A stretch of 64,000 nucleotides of DNA, from the NCBI RefSeq assembly GCF_055900595.2, contig NZ_CM148325.1. The stretch is one strand, 5' to 3'. Shown here in pieces: positions 15,897 through 25,518 of this stretch; within the stretch, counting starts at the first letter, position 1, and each line of letters opens with the position of its first letter. Position numbers and translations under genes: made by a program. Below the pieces are notes generated by a model. The model saw only the letters and a list, made by a program, of their open reading frames with translations, did not search any database and was not told where the DNA came from.

Positions 15897-16066
15897 AATG
15901 GCTCACTCAAGCTTGCTCACGATTGATTCCAGTAACAAACCGTATTGTGTAATTATTTCTATAGCAGGTCGCTATATAGGCTTGTATATATCGAATAATT
16001 TGAAAATCAAAGAGATATGTAGATTTTCACTCGAAAGTAGTATTACGTGTAAGTGAGGAGTAATTA

Positions 16067-16080
16067 TTGTTCGGTATCAA
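16067..16080 (-). promoter_or_regulatory. FNR-box-like site upstream of dmsA (TTGATACCGAACAA on the minus strand)
   Basis: matches TTGAT-N4-ATCAA consensus with one mismatch; lies 12 bp from the prophage att core. Confidence 0.5.
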
Positions 16081-16091
16081 AGGGAGACAAA

Positions 16092-16106
16092 AAAAGCGCC
16101 CGCAGG
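16092..16106. repeat. att core copy, integrase-proximal
   Basis: exact 15-mer shared with 53386..53400. Confidence 0.8.
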
Positions 16107-16192
16107 AGATTTAACGGTACTTACTCCTCTTGCTGATTTCCTTATTTTTCAATAAGTAAACAAAAACAAGGGGAGCAAATTATCACAAATAA

Positions 16193-17197
16193 TTACTGGT
16201 CGATGGACAGTTTATGGACACTTTCAGCCAGCGGATTAAAGCTGATCGCATCCTGTAAAAAGTCCGGTGAAAAATGCGCATACGTCATCGTTTGCTGAAT
16301 CGTGGCGTGACCCAGGATCCTCTGCAACGTGACGATGTTCCCGCCGTTCATCATGAAATGCGTGGCGAACGTGTGCCGCATGACATGCGTGGCCTGCCCT
16401 TTGGGTAAGTCGGGCTTCACCTCCTGAAGGATCTCCCTGAAACTGAGATAATCAACCTGATATAACAGGCCGGTCCGGCGGGTTTTAATTAACGGCACAA
16501 CGGAATCAGCTACAGGAACCGAGCGCGATTTCCCGTTCTTTGTGTTAAAGAACGTCACCCTGTTACCCACGATGTGTTCCCCGCGAAGCGTTGACGCCTC
16601 TTTCCATCTGGCCCCGGTCGAAAGGCACAGAATGGCAATGCGTCGTGCATCACCCTCAAGCCGTTTCAGAAGGCGATCAATCTCGTCATCTGAAAGAAAG
16701 GCCATTTCTGTATTCTGAACCTTGAGTTTACGTATTCCGCGCACAGGGTTTTCGTTATGATAAACCTCCGCGTCAATTAACAACGAAAACATCGCAGATA
16801 AGGCGCACAGGTCGCGATTGATACTGGACGGCATCAGTCCCGCCTGCAACTTATCCGAGCGATACTCAATCACGAATTTTCGTGTCATCTGGCTGGCGCG
16901 CGGGTCCCCCATTTCACGTATCACCTTCTCCAGTCTGGTTCTGTAGGTATCACCATATGCCTGATTACGACCATCAAGCATCCACCACACCTCAATCAGT
17001 TCTGATAACCGCCGTTGATCGGCGGGCCTTGCCTGCCACGGGTTATTGTGGAAATTCTGAAGAACGTATCTTTCGAATTCCTGCGCCTTTGATTTCAGGG
17101 TGAAAATCTTACGAATCCGCCTTCCTCCCGCCCCCTGAGGCCTTACATCAACCTGATAACGTCCGTCTTTGAGTTGCTTAATCGACATGATCAGCAC
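16193..17197 (-). CDS. int: P2-family tyrosine integrase
   Basis: P2 Int-like sequence (KQLKDGRYQVDVRP..., ILCLSTGARW..., catalytic region HVMRHTFATHFMMNGGNIVTLQRILGH...YAHF); true start may be the MSIKQL Met. Confidence 0.9.
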   Translation of the reverse strand: MLIMSIKQLKDGRYQVDVRPQGAGGRRIRKIFTLKSKAQEFERYVLQNFHNNPWQARPADQRRLSELIEVWWMLDGRNQAYGDTYRTRLEKVIREMGDPRASQMTRKFVIEYRSDKLQAGLMPSSINRDLCALSAMFSLLIDAEVYHNENPVRGIRKLKVQNTEMAFLSDDEIDRLLKRLEGDARRIAILCLSTGARWKEASTLRGEHIVGNRVTFFNTKNGKSRSVPVADSVVPLIKTRRTGLLYQVDYLSFREILQEVKPDLPKGQATHVMRHTFATHFMMNGGNIVTLQRILGHATIQQTMTYAHFSPDFLQDAISFNPLAESVHKLSIDQ

Positions 17198-17257: not shown

Positions 17258-17599
17258 TCAGCCAGCATTGCGGCCTGATTGGGGTGATTTTTGGGTATTG
17301 CGGGTTGAAACCTGATCGTCCTCCGACTGCGTGGAGCCATCAAGAGAGAGAGCCGGGGCGATCTGACCGGCAACAGGTAGCGTCTTATCTTTGATTAGCC
17401 AGAACATATATTTTTCAAACCGATCCACTTGAAGGACGGCCTCAACAATCTTTGCTCTGGCGATCTTTTGCCCTGACTCATAATTCCTGACAGTTGCCAG
17501 AGATAACCCTGTAATATCAGCAAATTGCTTTTGAGTTAGCCCTTCCGTCTTGCGTATCAAACGCAACTTTTTCGCATAGTCTATTGACAAGATACTCAT
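17258..17599 (-). CDS. P2 C-type immunity repressor
   Basis: 113 aa, HTH (LTQKQFADITGLSLATVRNYESG) and GQIAPAL motif resembling P2 C; divergent from the early operon. Confidence 0.8.
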   Translation of the reverse strand: MSILSIDYAKKLRLIRKTEGLTQKQFADITGLSLATVRNYESGQKIARAKIVEAVLQVDRFEKYMFWLIKDKTLPVAGQIAPALSLDGSTQSEDDQVSTRNTQKSPQSGRNAG

Positions 17600-17648
17600 T
17601 TGGGGATTAATCTCCTACAAAAGATAACCGTACGATTATCTTTACAAG

Positions 17649-18721: not shown

Positions 18722-19030
18722 ATGCGAAAACATTATTCACAGCCACATTTCCGCAACAGTGCACCACGCAGCAATAACCGCTGGAGCCTGCGCGAAACAC
18801 ACGCAACGCCGGGCGGTCATGCTGTAAAACAGACTGGTCAACACACCTGGCTGATTGAGCAGGCCGGACTCGTGATCCACAGATGCCACCGCAATCCGTT
18901 TACCGGAAACCGCATTTTTGCACTGAGCAGCGGCGACAATCAGTTCGGACAGGATTTCACACTGCACGAAGCCTTGCGAACTGCCGACCGCTTAATCGAG
19001 GGGCGCAGCTTTCAGCATACCGACTACTAA
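18722..19030 (+). CDS. hypothetical early protein
   Basis: 102-aa ORF with AGGAG RBS. Confidence 0.45.
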   Translation: MRKHYSQPHFRNSAPRSNNRWSLRETHATPGGHAVKQTGQHTWLIEQAGLVIHRCHRNPFTGNRIFALSSGDNQFGQDFTLHEALRTADRLIEGRSFQHTDY

Positions 19031-19068
19031 GGCAAAAGGAGTCTTAATAAGACAGAAGAGGCAGCAAG

Positions 19069-19311
19069 ATGAAAAGAGCCTATAAAGAACTCATTAACGA
19101 CGCGCTTCAGAATTACCATTACGGACTTACAAGCCGTGGCACTAACGGTGACGCTGTTTCACTTGCAGCACTGACTACAGCAATCAAGGGCCTGACCTGT
19201 TGCGCCTTTGGTTCCGGAGATAATGAAGCTCTGACGGAATTACAGGCCATTAATAAAGACCTGTCTGAAGGAAACGTAATAACCCCCTTTGTAATTCAGG
19301 AGGAAGCATGA
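19069..19311 (+). CDS. hypothetical early protein
   Basis: 80-aa ORF co-directional in early operon. Confidence 0.45.
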   Translation: MKRAYKELINDALQNYHYGLTSRGTNGDAVSLAALTTAIKGLTCCAFGSGDNEALTELQAINKDLSEGNVITPFVIQEEA

Positions 19312-19433
19312 GCGTATTTATGTCATGGTTAATTCTTATCCTTGCCATTATTTGCGCTGTGGAGATTATGCGGGTAATTAACAGCATTAACACCATTGAA
19401 TCGTTATTTACTGGCGATAAGCGCCGTAAATAA
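19308..19433 (+). CDS. tiny hydrophobic protein (41 aa, single TM)
   Basis: ATGA overlap with upstream stop; MSVFMSWLILILAIICAVEIM...; below six-frame size cut-off. Confidence 0.3.
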   Translation: MSVFMSWLILILAIICAVEIMRVINSINTIESLFTGDKRRK

Positions 19434-19513
19434 ACAGGCGTTTAACACCAGAAACAACCAGAAACATCCGCTCACGCGGAGGGGTTGACCCGCTCAAAAA
19501 GGAGAAATCAGGA

Positions 19514-19807
19514 ATGCTTAATAATAAAAAAAACCGAATCATTGATAACAGTGAACAGGTCAACAAAATAATCGAAGGCACAAACAAATTAATTAAGAAA
19601 AAAAACAAACTAAGCCGTGAATTAATGGAACATCCGGAAGAAATATTATTAGCCATGATGCACCAGACAGAAGCGATAGCCATCGCCCTTGCCGTGCAGG
19701 CGCTTTCTGAGTTCCGGGAAGAAAACATCAGGCTGGCTCAGGAGCTGAAAAACCTCAGACGTCAGCTTCAGAGCACTGAGGCTGGCACGTCATCACGAAT
19801 ACACTGA
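19514..19807 (+). CDS. hypothetical coiled-coil protein
   Basis: 97 aa, strong RBS AAAAGGAGA. Confidence 0.5.
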   Translation: MLNNKKNRIIDNSEQVNKIIEGTNKLIKKKNKLSRELMEHPEEILLAMMHQTEAIAIALAVQALSEFREENIRLAQELKNLRRQLQSTEAGTSSRIH

Positions 19808-19817
19808 GGGCCACACC

Positions 19818-20027
19818 ATGACTGCAATTCTGAGAAGACGCAATAAAACGCTTTTTACCGATACATCCGGGATGGAATACGAAGTGGAAAGCAGTGTCAT
19901 CGCCACCACCACCCGATGCCCGGCAGGTGACGAACTGATTTACGTCCACCTGACGGACGGGTCACAGATAACCGTCCTGACAGAGTCATGGCGCGAACTC
20001 GAGATAATAAGCGAGGTAAGAACATGA
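19818..20027 (+). CDS. hypothetical protein
   Basis: 69-aa ORF with GAGGG RBS. Confidence 0.45.
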   Translation: MTAILRRRNKTLFTDTSGMEYEVESSVIATTTRCPAGDELIYVHLTDGSQITVLTESWRELEIISEVRT

Positions 20028-20236
20028 GCAGCAAACACGATACCAACGCACGCAGACCAGGCAAAGAGGCGCGTCACCATATCGCCGTAATGCGCAACCT
20101 GCTTATGAGTGAAATCGACGATTTTGTGGCAGGCCTGGGGCAACCGGGCGAACCAGCAACACCAGGCCAGATACACAGGGAATTACGCCGCCGCGTGGAA
20201 AACGTCGTGGATTACGTCATAAACCCGAACGACTGA
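20024..20236 (+). CDS. hypothetical protein
   Basis: 70 aa from MSSKHDTNARRPG, ATGA-overlap with upstream gene. Confidence 0.45.
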   Translation: MSSKHDTNARRPGKEARHHIAVMRNLLMSEIDDFVAGLGQPGEPATPGQIHRELRRRVENVVDYVINPND

Positions 20237-20275
20237 CGGGAACATGGCGAGCGTCAGATGACACACGCAGGGCAC

Positions 20276-20758
20276 TTATCGGGAAAAACCGATCGTAATG
20301 GCAGCCATCATCTTTTCAGCGAAAGAGAGAGATTCACGATGACTGATATTCAGAGACATACAGGCTTTGTTGTACGCCACATTTTCCATGCATTCCAGGA
20401 CAGGAGAGTCATGCATCTCAAGCTCTGGAAGGCGTGCCAGCAGAGCTTCCGTACTGAGGAGGGCGCTTTTGGTAATCAACTCATTGTAGCGATGGGCATG
20501 CTCACTCGCCGCCTGCGCACGTTGCCCGAAACGACATATGAAATTACAGGCTCCGAGAACCACCACCACTGCCCCAAGCACCCAGCCGAAATGCCAGCCG
20601 GCTACGATGAACGCACCCGCCGCAAGGATCAAAATGTTGATGATCGCATCAAGGCGACGATTGAATACCGCCGCGATGCGCTCCAGCCAGTAGCTGTACC
20701 AGAGACGGAACATGACCTCATCCCGTTCTCTCGATTTTTTACGTTGGTTGTTTTGCAT
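20276..20758 (-). CDS. membrane protein encoded antisense to the early operon (moron candidate)
   Basis: 160 aa, RBS GAGGGAT, two hydrophobic helices (IINILILAAGAFIVAGWHFGWVLGAVVVVLGA) plus soluble C-terminal domain. Confidence 0.5.
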   Translation of the reverse strand: MQNNQRKKSRERDEVMFRLWYSYWLERIAAVFNRRLDAIINILILAAGAFIVAGWHFGWVLGAVVVVLGACNFICRFGQRAQAASEHAHRYNELITKSALLSTEALLARLPELEMHDSPVLECMENVAYNKACMSLNISHRESLSFAEKMMAAITIGFSR

Positions 20759-20992
20759 GGTGTTTTATCCCTCATCGTCATCGCTCTGCCCCTAATCAGC
20801 GCAGAGTGCAGGGTAACCTGGCTCGTGGAATTTTTGCAGCCAGACATCTTTACCCCCGGGCGTGTTGAACAAAGTGTCCGCCAGATCCACTGAACGGCGG
20901 ATTCATCAATGCTAACACGCCCTTCTTTTCCGGTTGAAGGCGAAAAAACCGGACCATTACCCCGACACAAAACAGAACAACGGAGAACAACT

Positions 20993-21547
20993 ATGCCCGC
21001 ACTTAAACCTATGGGTGTATCAGGTGTACCACCGAAGCATGTCAGAGCCTGGACACAACAGGAAGATGCTCTACTGGTCGGTTTATACCCCTCCCACACC
21101 GTACCAGAACTGACAAAACACTTTCAGAGAACCGGGCCAGCAATACGAAGCCGCATCCGTCTTTTGCTCTCTCAGGGGGTTATCCACACCAAACAACCCC
21201 CCCTGAATACAAAAGAACTCAACACGCTCATCAGGAATCGCCACACAAAAACCATCCGGGAACTCGCGAATGAACTGGGGCGCTCGACATCCACGGTGGG
21301 ACTGAACCTGAGAAAAAGAGGGTACCGGTTCAGGAAATACGGGGAACTCCACCACAGAGCCAGATACAGCGATCACCTGGTGGAGTTGGTAACTGAACTG
21401 CGCGATGAACAGGGGATGACATTCAGCGAAATCAGAAAGTACATCCGGGACACGGCCGGGATATCCCTTAAAAGATGGGTCCTCGCCCGGCTTTACGCAC
21501 GATATACCGCCGCTGACACCGTGCTTTGCGAACTGCTACCGGACTGA
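20993..21547 (+). CDS. putative DNA-binding early protein (HTH)
   Basis: 184 aa from MPALKPMG with GGAG RBS; HTH-like TIRELANELGRSTSTVGLNLRKRGY. Confidence 0.5.
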   Translation: MPALKPMGVSGVPPKHVRAWTQQEDALLVGLYPSHTVPELTKHFQRTGPAIRSRIRLLLSQGVIHTKQPPLNTKELNTLIRNRHTKTIRELANELGRSTSTVGLNLRKRGYRFRKYGELHHRARYSDHLVELVTELRDEQGMTFSEIRKYIRDTAGISLKRWVLARLYARYTAADTVLCELLPD

Positions 21548-21638
21548 GTAACCACTATGCACACACAAAAAAACCGCTTGCCATGCCGCAATCAGTCAGG
21601 TTACATTTCCGCTGCACCTCATAAAACGGGTGCCGGGA

Positions 21639-21833
21639 TTGCAACCCCCGCTGACAACTACAGCGCACAACCGCGCCAGCGGTTTTTTTGTGCGTACCGT
21701 ATCGCCACGTCTTTTTCGCGCCAGAATTATGGCGGGGCGTATGGGGCCGACTTCGGTCGGGCCGGTTTCTGTAGTTGCCGGTGGTTGCAACCCTGTACGT
21801 CTCGCCACCCAGAATTGCAACCTCTGGATGGTG
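21639..21833. repeat. TTGCAAC direct repeats (4 copies; three at ~30-bp spacing upstream of the 21868 gene)
   Basis: copies at 21639, 21766, 21796, 21827 in a ~320-bp noncoding stretch. Confidence 0.6.
21669..21690 (+). terminator. hairpin plus T-run (ACCGCGCCAGCGGTTTTTTT)
   Basis: GC stem followed by seven T. Confidence 0.45.
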
Positions 21834-21867
21834 AGTTTTCAAAACTTGCAACTACAGAGGCCACACC

Positions 21868-22092
21868 ATGGCAAACCGCAAACAACAGCGCGCATACGCT
21901 GCGCGTCGTCACATCCAGACTGAAATCAACCGCAGACTTTTCCGCGCATTCCGCGTCGCGCATATCATGCACATCAATATGCTGCATGAGCGCAGCCACG
22001 CACTGTCAAACATGTATTCCGCCGCTGTATTCAGCTACCTGGCGGATGACCTGCGCGAGCTGCAGGACCTCATTAACCAGCACCACCACTAA
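21868..22092 (+). CDS. hypothetical small basic protein
   Basis: 74 aa, RBS AGAGG, preceded by the TTGCAAC repeats. Confidence 0.45.
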   Translation: MANRKQQRAYAARRHIQTEINRRLFRAFRVAHIMHINMLHERSHALSNMYSAAVFSYLADDLRELQDLINQHHH

Positions 22093-22160
22093 TCAACATC
22101 CCGGAGCCATCCCGCCCCCGTACGCGGGAGGCTTCCGCACGTCCGTTTCCGGAGGTTCTC

Positions 22161-22574
22161 ATGAAGAGCGTTAAGGGACTTTCAGATATTCAGGATTTTT
22201 TTAACTGGATGTGGGCGGTGGATCCACGCCTCGCTTCCCGTCTCAATGACCTGCACGACTATTACCGCCGCGCCTGTAAACAGGCAGCCCGCAGCGCTGC
22301 CACATACGGGGATTTTTCCTTCACCGTTGACGACCGTTACCGCGTGGATGTCAGAGACCAGAACCACAGCCTGGAGCTGGGCCTGTTCCACATCAACGGG
22401 TGCGACAGCAGCGTTATCAGCTGGTCATCGTCAGAAATGGTGCTCGTTCTGGAAATGACCACCCACAGCGTGGTCGTGAAAGGGATTAAAACAGCAGAAG
22501 ACTTTATCGCTGAATACCAGCGCCTTCTTGTGCTGTACCGGGCTGCATTTCAGAAGGCAACAGCAGGGGAGTAA
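22161..22574 (+). CDS. hypothetical early protein immediately upstream of A
   Basis: 137 aa, RBS GGAGG. Confidence 0.5.
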   Translation: MKSVKGLSDIQDFFNWMWAVDPRLASRLNDLHDYYRRACKQAARSAATYGDFSFTVDDRYRVDVRDQNHSLELGLFHINGCDSSVISWSSSEMVLVLEMTTHSVVVKGIKTAEDFIAEYQRLLVLYRAAFQKATAGE

Positions 22575-22579
22575 GCGGA

Positions 22580-25090
22580 ATGAGCCATCACCACACGCAC
22601 CTGGCGTACCCGTGGAACGCCCCGCTGCCGGTTATTGATCCTGAGACATTCGGCAGAGCATTACCGCAGAAGCCAACCGCATTACAACGGGCAATCCGTG
22701 ACTACCTCACCGAAGACATTCGCACTGAGGCCCGGCTGGATGAAGAAACCGTGGCCTTCCTGACAACCACGGACAAAGGTAAGCAAATTAATTCACACCT
22801 TCACCGGGACGAAGAGCGGCAGATAAGGCTGGATAAGCTGGCACGACACAGACGCGAAAATCCGCCAACGGCGGTATCGGAGGCGATAGCCGAACTTCGC
22901 ACCCTGCCCTCGTTTCTTGCCAGTGTGTTGATCCGTGATCTGGCACGACTGAACCGGAAACAGCAAAGTGCCCGCAGTGAAGGTGTAAAAAACAACAGCG
23001 CATACGTGGCCGATAATTTCGTTCGCCGTGGACTGCGTGCGCGCCTGAAACGTATTGAAAGGGTTAACGACCGCTTTGCAACGCCGGCATTCAAAACCAC
23101 CGTCGTGCGCCATCGCCTTGAAGAACTGCTCACACTGCCGCAACTCACCCGTGACGAAATCCAGCGCATCGCCACACTGACAGCCCAGGCATTCGCCGCA
23201 GAATTTGAACGCATATGTGATGAAGTTCTTGAACGGACAGGCAAGGATAATGACAGCCCGGTTATCTGGCTGCTGGCCTACCAGAAGGTGGCACGCACAG
23301 CCTTAATTCTGGGCATGGTCCCGCCATACTGGCCGGAACTCGAAATCAGGCACAACCGACGCACACCGCCGGACCCTGAACGGGTTCCGGGTGCGGTACT
23401 GCGCATCACCTGCGCGACCTGGTGGAACAACCAGTTACGCCACGTCGCCGATCTCTGGCGGGAGGAGTTACTGCGCGCCGCCGGCAGAGTGTCACGTAAA
23501 CAATCCCCCTATATCAGCCATGAGTCACTACTGGAGTTCCGCGAGAAGCGCCAGCGCACCTGTGACTTTCTCAAAAGCTGGGATATTGAAAACGAAGACG
23601 GCGAGCGCCTGAGTCTGGAGGACGTGTACTGGGCTGGCCTGGGTAATCCACGCAACCGCCGCAATGAAATGATGGTCTGCGTCAGAGGGATGGAGATGGT
23701 GGCCGAATTACGGGCTGACGTCGCATTCTTCATCACAGTAACCACCCCTTCCCGCTTTCACAGCGTGAACGAGAACGGCAGCCTGAACCCGAAATACAAC
23801 GGTGCCACAGTACGAGATGCCAGTGATTATCTGGTTTACGACTTCTTCGCAGCCGTAAGAAAAAAAATAAAAAAAGAGGGGCTGGGCTGGTACGGCGTGC
23901 GAACCGCTGAGCCACACCATGACGGCACGCCACACTGGCATATGCTGGTATTCACTTCCCCGGAGAACGCAGAGCGCATCATCGAAATTATGCGCGAAGC
24001 AGCAATTAAATCAGATCGCCACGAACTGGGGGACGATATTTCACCGCGCTTTAAATGCGAGAAGATAGACCCGGAAAAAGGCACACCGGCAAGCTATATC
24101 GCAACCTATATCGGTAAGAACCTGGACGCCAGCGCTTTCCACAACAATGATCCGAAAACCGGAAAACCTTACGTTGATGAGGAATCCGGGAAAACCATGG
24201 CGGAAACCGTGGAGAACGCCATTGCCTGGGCAAGCCTTCACCGCATCCGTCAGTTCCAGTTTTTCGGCATTCCGCCCCGCCAGGTATGGCGTGAACTCCG
24301 CCGCCTTGCAAGCCAGATGGAGCGCAACCCGGCATCACCGAAGCACCTCGATCATGACGATATTGACGCCATTATGGCTGCCGCAGATGTGGGATGTTTT
24401 GCCACCTACATCATGAAACAGGGTGGTGTGCTCATTCCGCGCAACCAGTATCTGGTCCGCACCGCATACGAAACCGCAGACGAAGCCAACGACTACGGTG
24501 AACTCCCTCAACGTATCTACGGAATCTGCGCCCCGTCGCTCGGAGAGCGGTACACCATATGCACCCATCCGGACGAGTGGAAACTGGTTAAAAAAGAAAC
24601 AATACCAGACAACCGCACGGGCGAGGGTTTTGACCTTCAGGGCGACCCCGTCGCCCCTTGGACTCGTGGCAATAACTGTCCCCGGGATGAAAAAACAGAC
24701 AATCACGGACCAGAAAACAGGCAGGACCCCGGACGACTGACGCTTCCCGAAGAGAACCTGGAAAGCTGGCTGAATACGTTAAGCAGGGGCGATCGGAGAA
24801 AACTGCGTAATCAGATTAAAAATCAGCCGTCGGGCGCAAAAACCGGACAAAACGACACCACACCGGCATCTGACACCCCTGTAAGGGTGGGGATTGTCGT
24901 GCCTGCGGATACCGCGACGGACACGCAAATCGCCCGCGAACTTGATGCGCTGGGTGTGCAGTTGCCTGACGCGGCCATCATCTCCGTGCGTAACGGTGCC
25001 CGTGTGCGTCTGGATAACGGGGGAACAGCGTACTGGGATGAGTCAGCCCGTCACATCATCACAGAGCAGCCAGTGGAGGCGGGAGCATGA
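22580..25090 (+). CDS. A: P2 gpA-family rolling-circle replication initiation protein
   Basis: 836 aa; HWHMLVF histidine motif and catalytic Tyr region (YIATYIGKN) typical of P2 A. Confidence 0.85.
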   Translation: MSHHHTHLAYPWNAPLPVIDPETFGRALPQKPTALQRAIRDYLTEDIRTEARLDEETVAFLTTTDKGKQINSHLHRDEERQIRLDKLARHRRENPPTAVSEAIAELRTLPSFLASVLIRDLARLNRKQQSARSEGVKNNSAYVADNFVRRGLRARLKRIERVNDRFATPAFKTTVVRHRLEELLTLPQLTRDEIQRIATLTAQAFAAEFERICDEVLERTGKDNDSPVIWLLAYQKVARTALILGMVPPYWPELEIRHNRRTPPDPERVPGAVLRITCATWWNNQLRHVADLWREELLRAAGRVSRKQSPYISHESLLEFREKRQRTCDFLKSWDIENEDGERLSLEDVYWAGLGNPRNRRNEMMVCVRGMEMVAELRADVAFFITVTTPSRFHSVNENGSLNPKYNGATVRDASDYLVYDFFAAVRKKIKKEGLGWYGVRTAEPHHDGTPHWHMLVFTSPENAERIIEIMREAAIKSDRHELGDDISPRFKCEKIDPEKGTPASYIATYIGKNLDASAFHNNDPKTGKPYVDEESGKTMAETVENAIAWASLHRIRQFQFFGIPPRQVWRELRRLASQMERNPASPKHLDHDDIDAIMAAADVGCFATYIMKQGGVLIPRNQYLVRTAYETADEANDYGELPQRIYGICAPSLGERYTICTHPDEWKLVKKETIPDNRTGEGFDLQGDPVAPWTRGNNCPRDEKTDNHGPENRQDPGRLTLPEENLESWLNTLSRGDRRKLRNQIKNQPSGAKTGQNDTTPASDTPVRVGIVVPADTATDTQIARELDALGVQLPDAAIISVRNGARVRLDNGGTAYWDESARHIITEQPVEAGA

Positions 25091-25518
25091 CGCGATTTTG
25101 CTGCACCATGCAGCGCCCACAGTTTGAGGCCATCATGCGCCAGCGTATGCCGGTGCTGACACTGTTCAGGCCTGCCACAAGGCCACAACCGGGCGACGAG
25201 CTGGAAATCACGATAGTCAGCCCCGATCGCACCACGGAGACCACCATCGCCGACATACTCAACAGGCGGCCGGGCAGCGAGAGCCATAGCTGGACTGTCG
25301 TCATTCGTCCGCGCCGTTCGCCGGAGGAACCGGAGCCGTGCACGCCTGCCGGGAAAATCATGCAGAGATATCACGAAGAGCGGACACGCAGGCACAACGG
25401 CGGACTGGCCAGAACACTGAACACAGTCAATCACAAGGCCGCGCTGGCGCGAATGGTCTTTTCACCACAACGCAATTCATTCGCCAGACCAGCACAGAAC
25501 GGGAGGAAACAACAGTGA
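25087..25518 (+). CDS. hypothetical Arg-rich protein, translationally coupled to A
   Basis: 143 aa; ATGA overlap with A stop; RBS GGAGG. Confidence 0.45.
   Translation: MTRFCCTMQRPQFEAIMRQRMPVLTLFRPATRPQPGDELEITIVSPDRTTETTIADILNRRPGSESHSWTVVIRPRRSPEEPEPCTPAGKIMQRYHEERTRRHNGGLARTLNTVNHKAALARMVFSPQRNSFARPAQNGRKQQ

Follow-up and report, generated by a model that had tools for sequence, protein, structure and literature searches.

The systems closest to the locus analyzed here are those in which phage immunity is exerted by small RNAs. In phages P1 and P7, the immI region reportedly produces the c4 antisense RNA, whose segments a' and b' match the sites a1,b1 and a2,b2 and which thereby controls icd-ant, an arrangement said to have been described by Citron and Schuster in 1990. 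Repression through pairing of C4 at the Shine-Dalgarno sequence has been shown in P1. The annotated P1 immI region (NC_005856) comprises, in this order, promoters, a1, b1, the c4 RNA, a2, and finally b2, which is located at the Shine-Dalgarno sequence of icd, a reading frame of 73 aa; within c4, the second hairpin holds b' in its loop and the 3' junction holds a'. The RNA immunity mechanisms of P1, P4 and N15 are outlined in PMC3632133, according to which the anti-immunity system of N15 employs a small processed RNA to control an antirepressor (Ravin et al., 1999). As described for the Gifsy-1 locus in PMC4825925, IsrK is transcribed from its own promoter and ends at a leaky terminator; it is followed by a processed RNA of about 80 nt that is complementary to the middle of IsrK, and by an antirepressor-type gene. 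The same study reports that the short IsrK RNA activates translation in trans and that alternative pairings in cis and in trans occur (PMC4825925).

The interval that we studied is located in the early operon of a P88-like Escherichia coli prophage, and we consider it highly probable that it constitutes an IsrK-C4 module for RNA immunity, of the type known from P1 immI, P4 immunity and N15 anti-immunity. We base this identification on the matches to both Rfam families, the covariation within the C4 structure, a composite sequence motif, a layout resembling that of P1, the occurrence of the same tandem elsewhere, the preference of the antisense elements for their cognate targets, the clustering of sequence variation in the pairing sites, the concerted change of all three copies of each site, and the predicted cis pairing of a1/b1 with a'/b' in the complete transcript.

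The window, that is, the entire stretch of 64,000 nucleotides under analysis, is a segment of an E. coli chromosome that contains a P2-family prophage; its portion from 19000 to 25200 is 100% identical in E. coli TUM1886 and in other isolates, many of which originate from poultry. The nearest phages are P88, the Citrobacter phage phiSM and other Xuanwuvirus members of the Peduoviridae; P88 is inducible by mitomycin (PMC5285337). Genes of the prophage are arranged in the order integrase (about 16194-17189, minus strand), C repressor (about 17259-17600, minus strand), Cox, small early genes, a DNA-binding protein, the gap considered here, a 74-aa gene, a 137-aa gene, and the P2-type replication endonuclease A. 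A reading of the letters alone, hereafter the sequence-only reading, had flagged the gap as noncoding, and positions 21548-21867 are indeed featureless in the identical RefSeq record, between the end of the gene for the DNA-binding protein (21547) and the start of the 74-aa gene (21868). Two observations concern other parts of the prophage. Just beyond the integrase gene, at or near the junction between prophage and chromosome, lies a match to the Rfam family STnc130 (15987-16121, plus strand; 127.8 bits against a gathering score of 55). Moreover, a hypothetical gene of 160 codons (20276-20758) is carried on the minus strand within the otherwise rightward early operon; no Pfam match was found for its product, and it may represent a moron.

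The gene directly upstream of the module (20909-21547) varies among relatives. This position is occupied by a D5-like DNA-binding protein in the window and in phiSM, by an SPFH protein in P88 and ETEC1732, and it is empty in 569R5 and O104:H4. Because homology among the relatives resumes about 10 nt upstream of the -35 hexamer of the module, this slot looks like an insertion site for cargo genes.

An internal promoter had been suggested for the interval, and a promoter-like element is indeed present. With its hexamers TTGCCA and TACATT separated by 18 bp and an A-tract immediately 5' of it, the putative sigma-70 promoter at 21578-21607 (plus strand) is the only promoter-like site between 21300 and 22300, it is invariant in five Xuanwuvirus sequences, and a -35/-10 pair is found at the matching position upstream of every other module, including P_LE of P4 and P1c4 (P51b) of P1. 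It ends 7 nt upstream of a match to the Rfam family isrK (RF01394) that covers model positions 1-77 of 77 and reaches 60.1 bits (gathering score 50). Transcription would start at about 21614 and yield an IsrK-like leader or small RNA of about 76 nt (21614-21689, plus strand). This RNA consists of a 5' hairpin, a second hairpin that carries the a1 site in its loop, a linker with the b1 site, and an intrinsic terminator; its predicted folding energy is -27 kcal/mol (z = -2.8). The terminator-like hairpin previously noticed in the sequence corresponds to this Rho-independent terminator (21669-21689, plus strand), in which the GC-rich 6-bp stem AACCGC-GCCA-GCGGTT (21669-21684) is followed by a run of seven T residues that extends to 21689. 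Both the promoter-like and the terminator-like sites that flank the IsrK-like RNA are conserved. A search for the leader family c4-a1b1 (RF03163) gave no match at E <= 1 in the window; the leader is of the isrK type and has the same role as the c4-a1b1 leader.

The second RNA begins after a spacer of 35 nt. It is a C4-type antisense RNA (21725-21812, plus strand), a homologue of the P4 CI RNA and of STnc1160, and its match to the Rfam family C4 (RF01695) spans model positions 1-87 of 87 with 80.1 bits against a gathering score of 45. The idea that the interval might harbor a small RNA locus has thus been borne out by two RNAs that Rfam recognizes. The C4 segment has a predicted folding energy of -45.8 kcal/mol (z = -3.8), and its minimum free energy structure is that of the Rfam family: a closing stem of 17 bp that resembles a tRNA acceptor and is followed by ACC encloses a UUCG hairpin, a second hairpin and a single-stranded junction. 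Across 12 homologues, 324 of 324 pair cells contain standard pairs and 13 of the 27 pairs show compensatory double changes, while control registers slid by 1 to 3 columns yielded only 1-3 pairs with double changes. The first inner hairpin, CCGAC-UUCG-GUCGG, is found at 21747-21760 (plus strand) and has compensatory changes in four of its five pairs. A hairpin with a TTCG loop had been noted beforehand; it exists, but not at 21724-21746, where it had been placed with an error of about 23 nt, since this stretch forms the 5' arm of the long stem by which the hairpin is enclosed. From the annotated ends of the P1 C4 RNA, we predict that the mature form comprises positions 21731-21809 (GGCGGGG...GCCACC). 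The sequence AAUUAU|GG at the position of the P1 cleavage, the acceptor-like stem of 17 bp and the 3' ACC are all compatible with maturation by RNase P, which, by analogy, probably cleaves at G21731.

The feature that first drew attention to the interval was the heptamer TTGCAAC, of which four copies had been counted. We find them on the plus strand at 21639, 21785, 21815 and 21846; the last three follow one another at distances of 30 and 31 nt. The heptamer is not enriched in the 64-kb window as a whole (11 found, 15.4 expected); locally, the four copies lie within 214 nt, for which 0.05 would be expected (Poisson P of about 3e-7). A composite motif, TTGCAACC-N(3-30)-CAACTACAG, has precisely three occurrences in the 64 kb, against none expected; all three lie within the gap, two of them in sense orientation and the third as a reverse complement inside C4. 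This pattern can be read with the nomenclature of P1. Site a1 (TTGCAACC, 21639-21646, plus strand) is an upstream decoy or target complementary to a' and occupies the position of P1 a1; its predicted duplex with a' extends over 21635-21647 and has an energy of -13.3 kcal/mol. Site b1 (CAACTACAG, 21655-21663, plus strand) is complementary to the b' loop and covaries with b' and b2. Within C4, the b' recognition loop UUUCUGUAGUUG of inner hairpin 2 is located at 21766-21778 (plus strand), with the core CUGUAGUUG at 21769-21777, and the a' recognition element GGUUGCAA forms the single-stranded junction at 21783-21790 (plus strand). In the mRNA leader, the a2 target TTGCAACC (21815-21822, plus strand) covaries with a1 and a' and has a predicted duplex of -12.1 kcal/mol with a', and the b2 target UGCAACUACAGAGGC (21847-21861, plus strand; core 21849-57) has one of -17.8 kcal/mol with b'. 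The b2 site overlaps the Shine-Dalgarno sequence AGAGG (21856-21860) of the gene starting at 21868, which is separated by 7 nt from the ATG; in 15 of 15 modules, b2 ends in the Shine-Dalgarno sequence. The fourth TTGCAAC, at 21846, is merely the 5' edge of b2. Taken together, there is strong evidence from the sequence that the TTGCAAC copies are RNA-RNA pairing sites that correspond to a1, a' and a2 of P1, and that the CAACTACAG set correspondingly represents b1, b' and b2. In the window phage only, the a site is palindromic (GGUUGCAACC; 21783-21792, 21639-21646 and 21815-21822), whereas the a sites of the relatives are not. Because of this palindrome, C4 could form dimers via a', or a1 could pair directly with a2; the chance of such alternative pairings is a point against the module model.

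The first gene downstream of the module (21868-22092, plus strand) encodes a protein of 74 aa that is homologous to epsilon, the 'derepression' protein of P4, and is hence a putative antirepressor. It was identified by a match to the Pfam family PF25738 ('Derepression') that, with 27.2 bits against a cut-off of 27, is marginal and counts as a point against the module model, and by BLASTP against P4 epsilon (29% identity over 66 aa, E = 1e-7). Its orthologues are labelled 'derepression protein' in P88 and by the PGAP annotation. The 137-aa protein and the P2-type replication endonuclease A (Phage_GPA, E = 1e-103) follow in the same transcription unit (22161-25090, plus strand). No NCBIfam models were found for the 74-aa and 137-aa proteins, and comparison of the 137-aa protein with P4 ORF151 revealed no homology. 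The order of genes 3' of the module is the same in all Xuanwuvirus relatives whose annotation was retrieved.

These data lend themselves to a regulatory model patterned on P1, P4 and N15. Transcription would initiate at the promoter 21578-21607, and most transcripts would end at the terminator 21669-21689, thereby forming the 76-nt IsrK-like RNA with a1 and b1. Those transcripts that read through would contain the C4-type RNA; RNase P would probably release it by cleaving at G21731, and trimming would bring its end to about position 21809. The b' loop and the a' junction of C4 would then pair with b2 (21847-21861) and a2 (21815-21822) on the mRNA, mask the Shine-Dalgarno sequence of the epsilon-like gene and block its translation. 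With the coupling of translation to transcription lost, transcription into the replication gene A would probably be blocked as well, so that in the lysogen the expression of gene A from this promoter would be limited; the 137-aa gene and gene A would thus probably both be subject to polarity exerted by the RNA switch. The a1 and b1 sites, present in the leader or in the IsrK RNA, would act in cis or in trans as competing decoys that set the switch, and the hypervariable a and b sequences would determine the specificity of immunity. The sequences themselves show that the two RNAs belong to their families, how they are structured, that the three copies of each site are complementary and covary, and that b2 overlaps the Shine-Dalgarno sequence. 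We infer the direction of this regulation, and likewise an antirepressor activity of the 74-aa protein, from the comparison with characterized phages.

The dissection of the Gifsy-1 locus, the one IsrK locus that has been dissected by experiment, placed the emphasis on trans-activation by IsrK and on an orf45 that is translated across the C4 region and not on repression by a processed C4 RNA (PMC4825925), which stands against the module model as formulated above. An activating switch of this type would keep the read-through transcript silent by cis pairing of a1/b1 with C4, the short IsrK RNA would activate in trans, and a leader ORF across C4 would couple translation to the downstream gene. 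This is the experimental model for the homologous Salmonella locus (PMC4825925), and the minimum free energy fold of the 272-nt transcript (21614-21885) does pair a1/b1 in cis with a'/b', in the manner depicted there for structure A of Gifsy-1 isrK. However, the ATG at 21729 lacks a Shine-Dalgarno sequence in the Xuanwuvirus group, the frame of the leader ORF is offset from that of the downstream gene by 1 in the window and by 2 in the relatives, and the ORF overruns the downstream ATG; furthermore, b2 directly covers the Shine-Dalgarno sequence, as it does in P1. We regard this switch as a rather doubtful description of the window locus. It should be noted that the activating switch and repression by C4 are largely complementary, as an IsrK decoy that sequesters C4 amounts to activation.

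A second alternative takes P4 as its example and assumes control purely by premature termination, in which pairing of the C4/CI RNA with the upstream and downstream sites would stop transcription ahead of the replication genes, whether or not the 74-aa gene is translated. In its favor, P4 has matches to the two Rfam models in the same order, with epsilon and a replication gene downstream, and the P4 mechanism is summarized in PMC4825925. Predictions gave no terminator-like element for the stretch from 21812 to 21868, though, and the overlap of b2 with the Shine-Dalgarno sequence argues for a translational step that comes first, as in P1. Termination as the sole means of control thus appears unlikely to us.

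The variation among related prophages bears on the nature of the pairing sites themselves. We aligned the window with P88, phiSM, 569R5 and PhiR44_2, and later added the E. coli prophages of O104:H4 2011C-3493, ETEC1732 and 10671. In these eight P88-like (Xuanwuvirus) prophages, the backbone of the module is nearly invariant and the a and b sites differ: among five Xuanwuvirus sequences, the six sites, which together span 83 nt, account for 34 of the 50 variable columns (P = 8e-11). The three copies of each site always change in step, and seven combinations of a and b are present among the eight sequences. The window combines a TTGCAAC with b CAACTACAG; P88 has a TTTCCAC with the same b type, CAACTACAG; and phiSM has a TTGGAAC with b CAACCAAAG. 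In 569R5, a TTCGCAG is joined to b CTACACAAG, in O104:H4 a TTTCCAC to b CTATACACG, in ETEC1732 a TTCGCAG to b CAACCAAAG, and in strain 10671 a TTCTCAAC to b GAGCAAAG. It follows from these combinations that the a and b types reassort independently. The a site TTCTCAAC of the Xuanwuvirus-type module in strain 10671 is identical to that of phage N15, an observation that suggests that specificity elements are shared among, or have converged in, unrelated types of phages.

We further compared predicted duplexes in 13 modules from Xuanwuvirus phages, lambdoid Stx and other phages, ST64B, N15, P4 and P1. In each of the 13, the duplex of a' plus b' with its cognate target was the best one, both for the downstream and for the upstream targets (means of -24.5 versus -11.2 kcal/mol). 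This result provides strong evidence that the sites function via RNA-RNA pairing, and it speaks against a sequence-specific DNA-binding protein. The sequence-only reading had recommended a search for a protein that binds TTGCAAC, and one might think of operators for such a protein, for instance the HTH protein encoded upstream, that would control an internal promoter, in view of the regular spacing of 30-31 bp and the partial palindromy. We hold this to be most improbable. The heptamer is not conserved in relatives with nearly identical surroundings; they carry TTTCCAC, TTGGAAC, TTCGCAG or TTCTCAAC instead, and yet the complementarity among the three copies, including that to the C4 junction, is kept, which is the signature of RNA-RNA pairing. 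In addition, P88, 569R5 and O104:H4 either lack the upstream HTH gene or have another gene in its place, while their module is unchanged, and the repeats lie downstream of the promoter, inside the RNAs.

It is scarcely credible that the interval codes for a protein, be it via the 205-aa ORF 21557-22174 (annotated in 569R5 and PhiR44_2, open in the window and in three relatives, and with an 'Ash family' match of 26.0 bits to Pfam Phage_ASH for the 569R5 translation), via an ORF on the reverse strand (98 aa; such an ORF is annotated in P88), or via the leader ORF from the ATG at 21729, because, compared with the other four sequences, the window carries indels of +1 at 21645 and -1 at 21814 that put some 57 codons of the 205-aa ORF into another frame in DNA that is otherwise about 90% identical, substitutions do not favor the third codon position (15:9:16 over the three positions), variation clusters in the pairing sites, the window's own translation has no Pfam match, the 205-aa ORF overlaps the epsilon-like gene out of frame, and its ATG is absent from P88. 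A conserved gene across the interval, which the earlier reading had named as the finding that would contradict it, was looked for in the relatives; the spanning 205-aa ORF turned out to be frame-shifted between them and does not refute that reading.

Existing annotations of this region deserve comment in their own right. Pfam Phage_ASH (PF10554) scores exactly at its threshold on the spurious ORF across isrK-C4 (window 21557-22174; loci L008 1458-2075 and L019 1177-1440), and both PGAP and submitters have called 'ash family protein' genes or pseudogenes over the isrK-C4 region. The ash protein family seems to be the translation shadow of a conserved noncoding RNA. In nine of nine modules from outside Xuanwuvirus and P1 (lambdoid phages, N15 and P4; loci L004, L005, L006, L007 and L010-L014), an ATG at the 5' end of C4 shares its reading frame with the antirepressor or eta gene that follows, and no stop codon intervenes. 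This explains the over-long 'Rha/antirepressor' coding sequences in which the RNAs have been swallowed by the annotation. The in-frame C4 ATG may be related to orf45 of Gifsy-1; in the Xuanwuvirus group, the frame relation between the C4 ATG and the downstream gene has been lost.

The Xuanwuvirus form of the 290-nt module is present, at a coverage of at least 80%, in 1,135 of 5,426 complete E. coli genomes, in nearly all of which it has gone unannotated; matches of 99% or more, which share the specificity of the window itself, are limited to 14 records. Searches with Rfam recovered the tandem of isrK and C4 in 13 of 13 additional loci examined, including N15 and P4, and in one existing phage record both RNAs are annotated side by side. 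Our searches of the P2 and 186 early regions with the Rfam models detected no isrK/C4 module, and we found no description of an isrK-C4 module in the literature on P88, phiSM or Xuanwuvirus phages. It is conceivable, and we offer this as a tentative proposal, that the P88-like phages of the P2 family, which reside in roughly one fifth of complete E. coli genomes, run a second, RNA-based layer of immunity in which IsrK and C4 govern the epsilon-like antirepressor and gene A, a layer that P2 and 186 would lack and whose cassette would be of the same kind as that of the satellite P4. Independently reassorting a and b sites would then create many hetero-immune specificities, with possible competition or cross-talk among helpers, satellites and other prophages bearing C4.

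An unannotated and sometimes protein-misannotated gap in a very common family of E. coli prophages has hereby become a defined regulatory element with testable pairing sites. That RNA immunity and epsilon are combined in the same cassette in a helper-type phage of the P2 family and in its satellite P4 bears on the evolution of the regulatory circuits of helper and satellite and on the question of whether these circuits disturb each other. The independent reassortment of a and b provides a compact natural case of modular RNA-RNA recognition codes, and the a and b types could serve to sort prophages into immunity groups. The module reveals no new mechanism.

P1 immI and the window agree in the order and spacing of all their elements, from the promoter onward. 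The a1 and b1 sites are 8 nt apart in the window and 7 nt apart in P1, a2 follows just after C4 in both, and b2 lies 22-27 nt further on and overlaps the Shine-Dalgarno sequence of an ORF of about 73-74 aa. In P1, the equivalent of the window's b' is the c4 loop CACUAAC, whose pairing partners are b1 and b2, and that of a' is the junction UGUCAA. Both C4 RNAs match the same Rfam family, and the 5' end of P1 C4 lies at the same AAUUAU|GG as G21731. The leaders differ, as that of P1 matches c4-a1b1 with 51 bits and isrK only below threshold, whereas that of the window is of the isrK type. P1 controls icd-ant, while the genes downstream in the window are those for the epsilon-like derepression protein and the P2-type gene A, in a myovirus of the P2 family.

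In P4 (P_LE, seqA, CI RNA/seqB, seqC, eta, epsilon, alpha), the seqA leader and the CI RNA match isrK and C4 in the same order as in the window, and the left operon parallels the window cassette in its succession of leader, C4/CI RNA, epsilon-like gene, small ORF and replication gene. The spacer between leader and CI RNA measures 107 nt in P4 as opposed to 35 nt in the window, the eta gene that P4 carries between seqC and epsilon is missing from the window, and the replication protein is the alpha primase-helicase in P4 but a GPA endonuclease in the window. P4 is a satellite, whereas the window element resides within a complete helper-type phage. The Gifsy-1 IsrK/orf45 (STnc1160)/AnrP locus resembles the window in the arrangement of promoter, terminator, C4-like RNA and antirepressor-type gene; its regulated gene is of the Rha/AnrP type and in frame with the ORF of the C4 region, whereas the window has a gene of another family and no in-frame leader ORF. 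In N15, the isrK and C4 tandem is found upstream of gene 32/31/ant with the same a/b logic as in the window, although N15 is a linear plasmid-prophage with a different family of antirepressor. Collectively, the locus represents a new, hitherto unannotated case of IsrK-C4 antisense immunity, a known system whose class of mechanism is well established; what sets it apart is its location in a P2-family prophage, beside an epsilon-like gene and gene A, and its clear reassorting specificity code.
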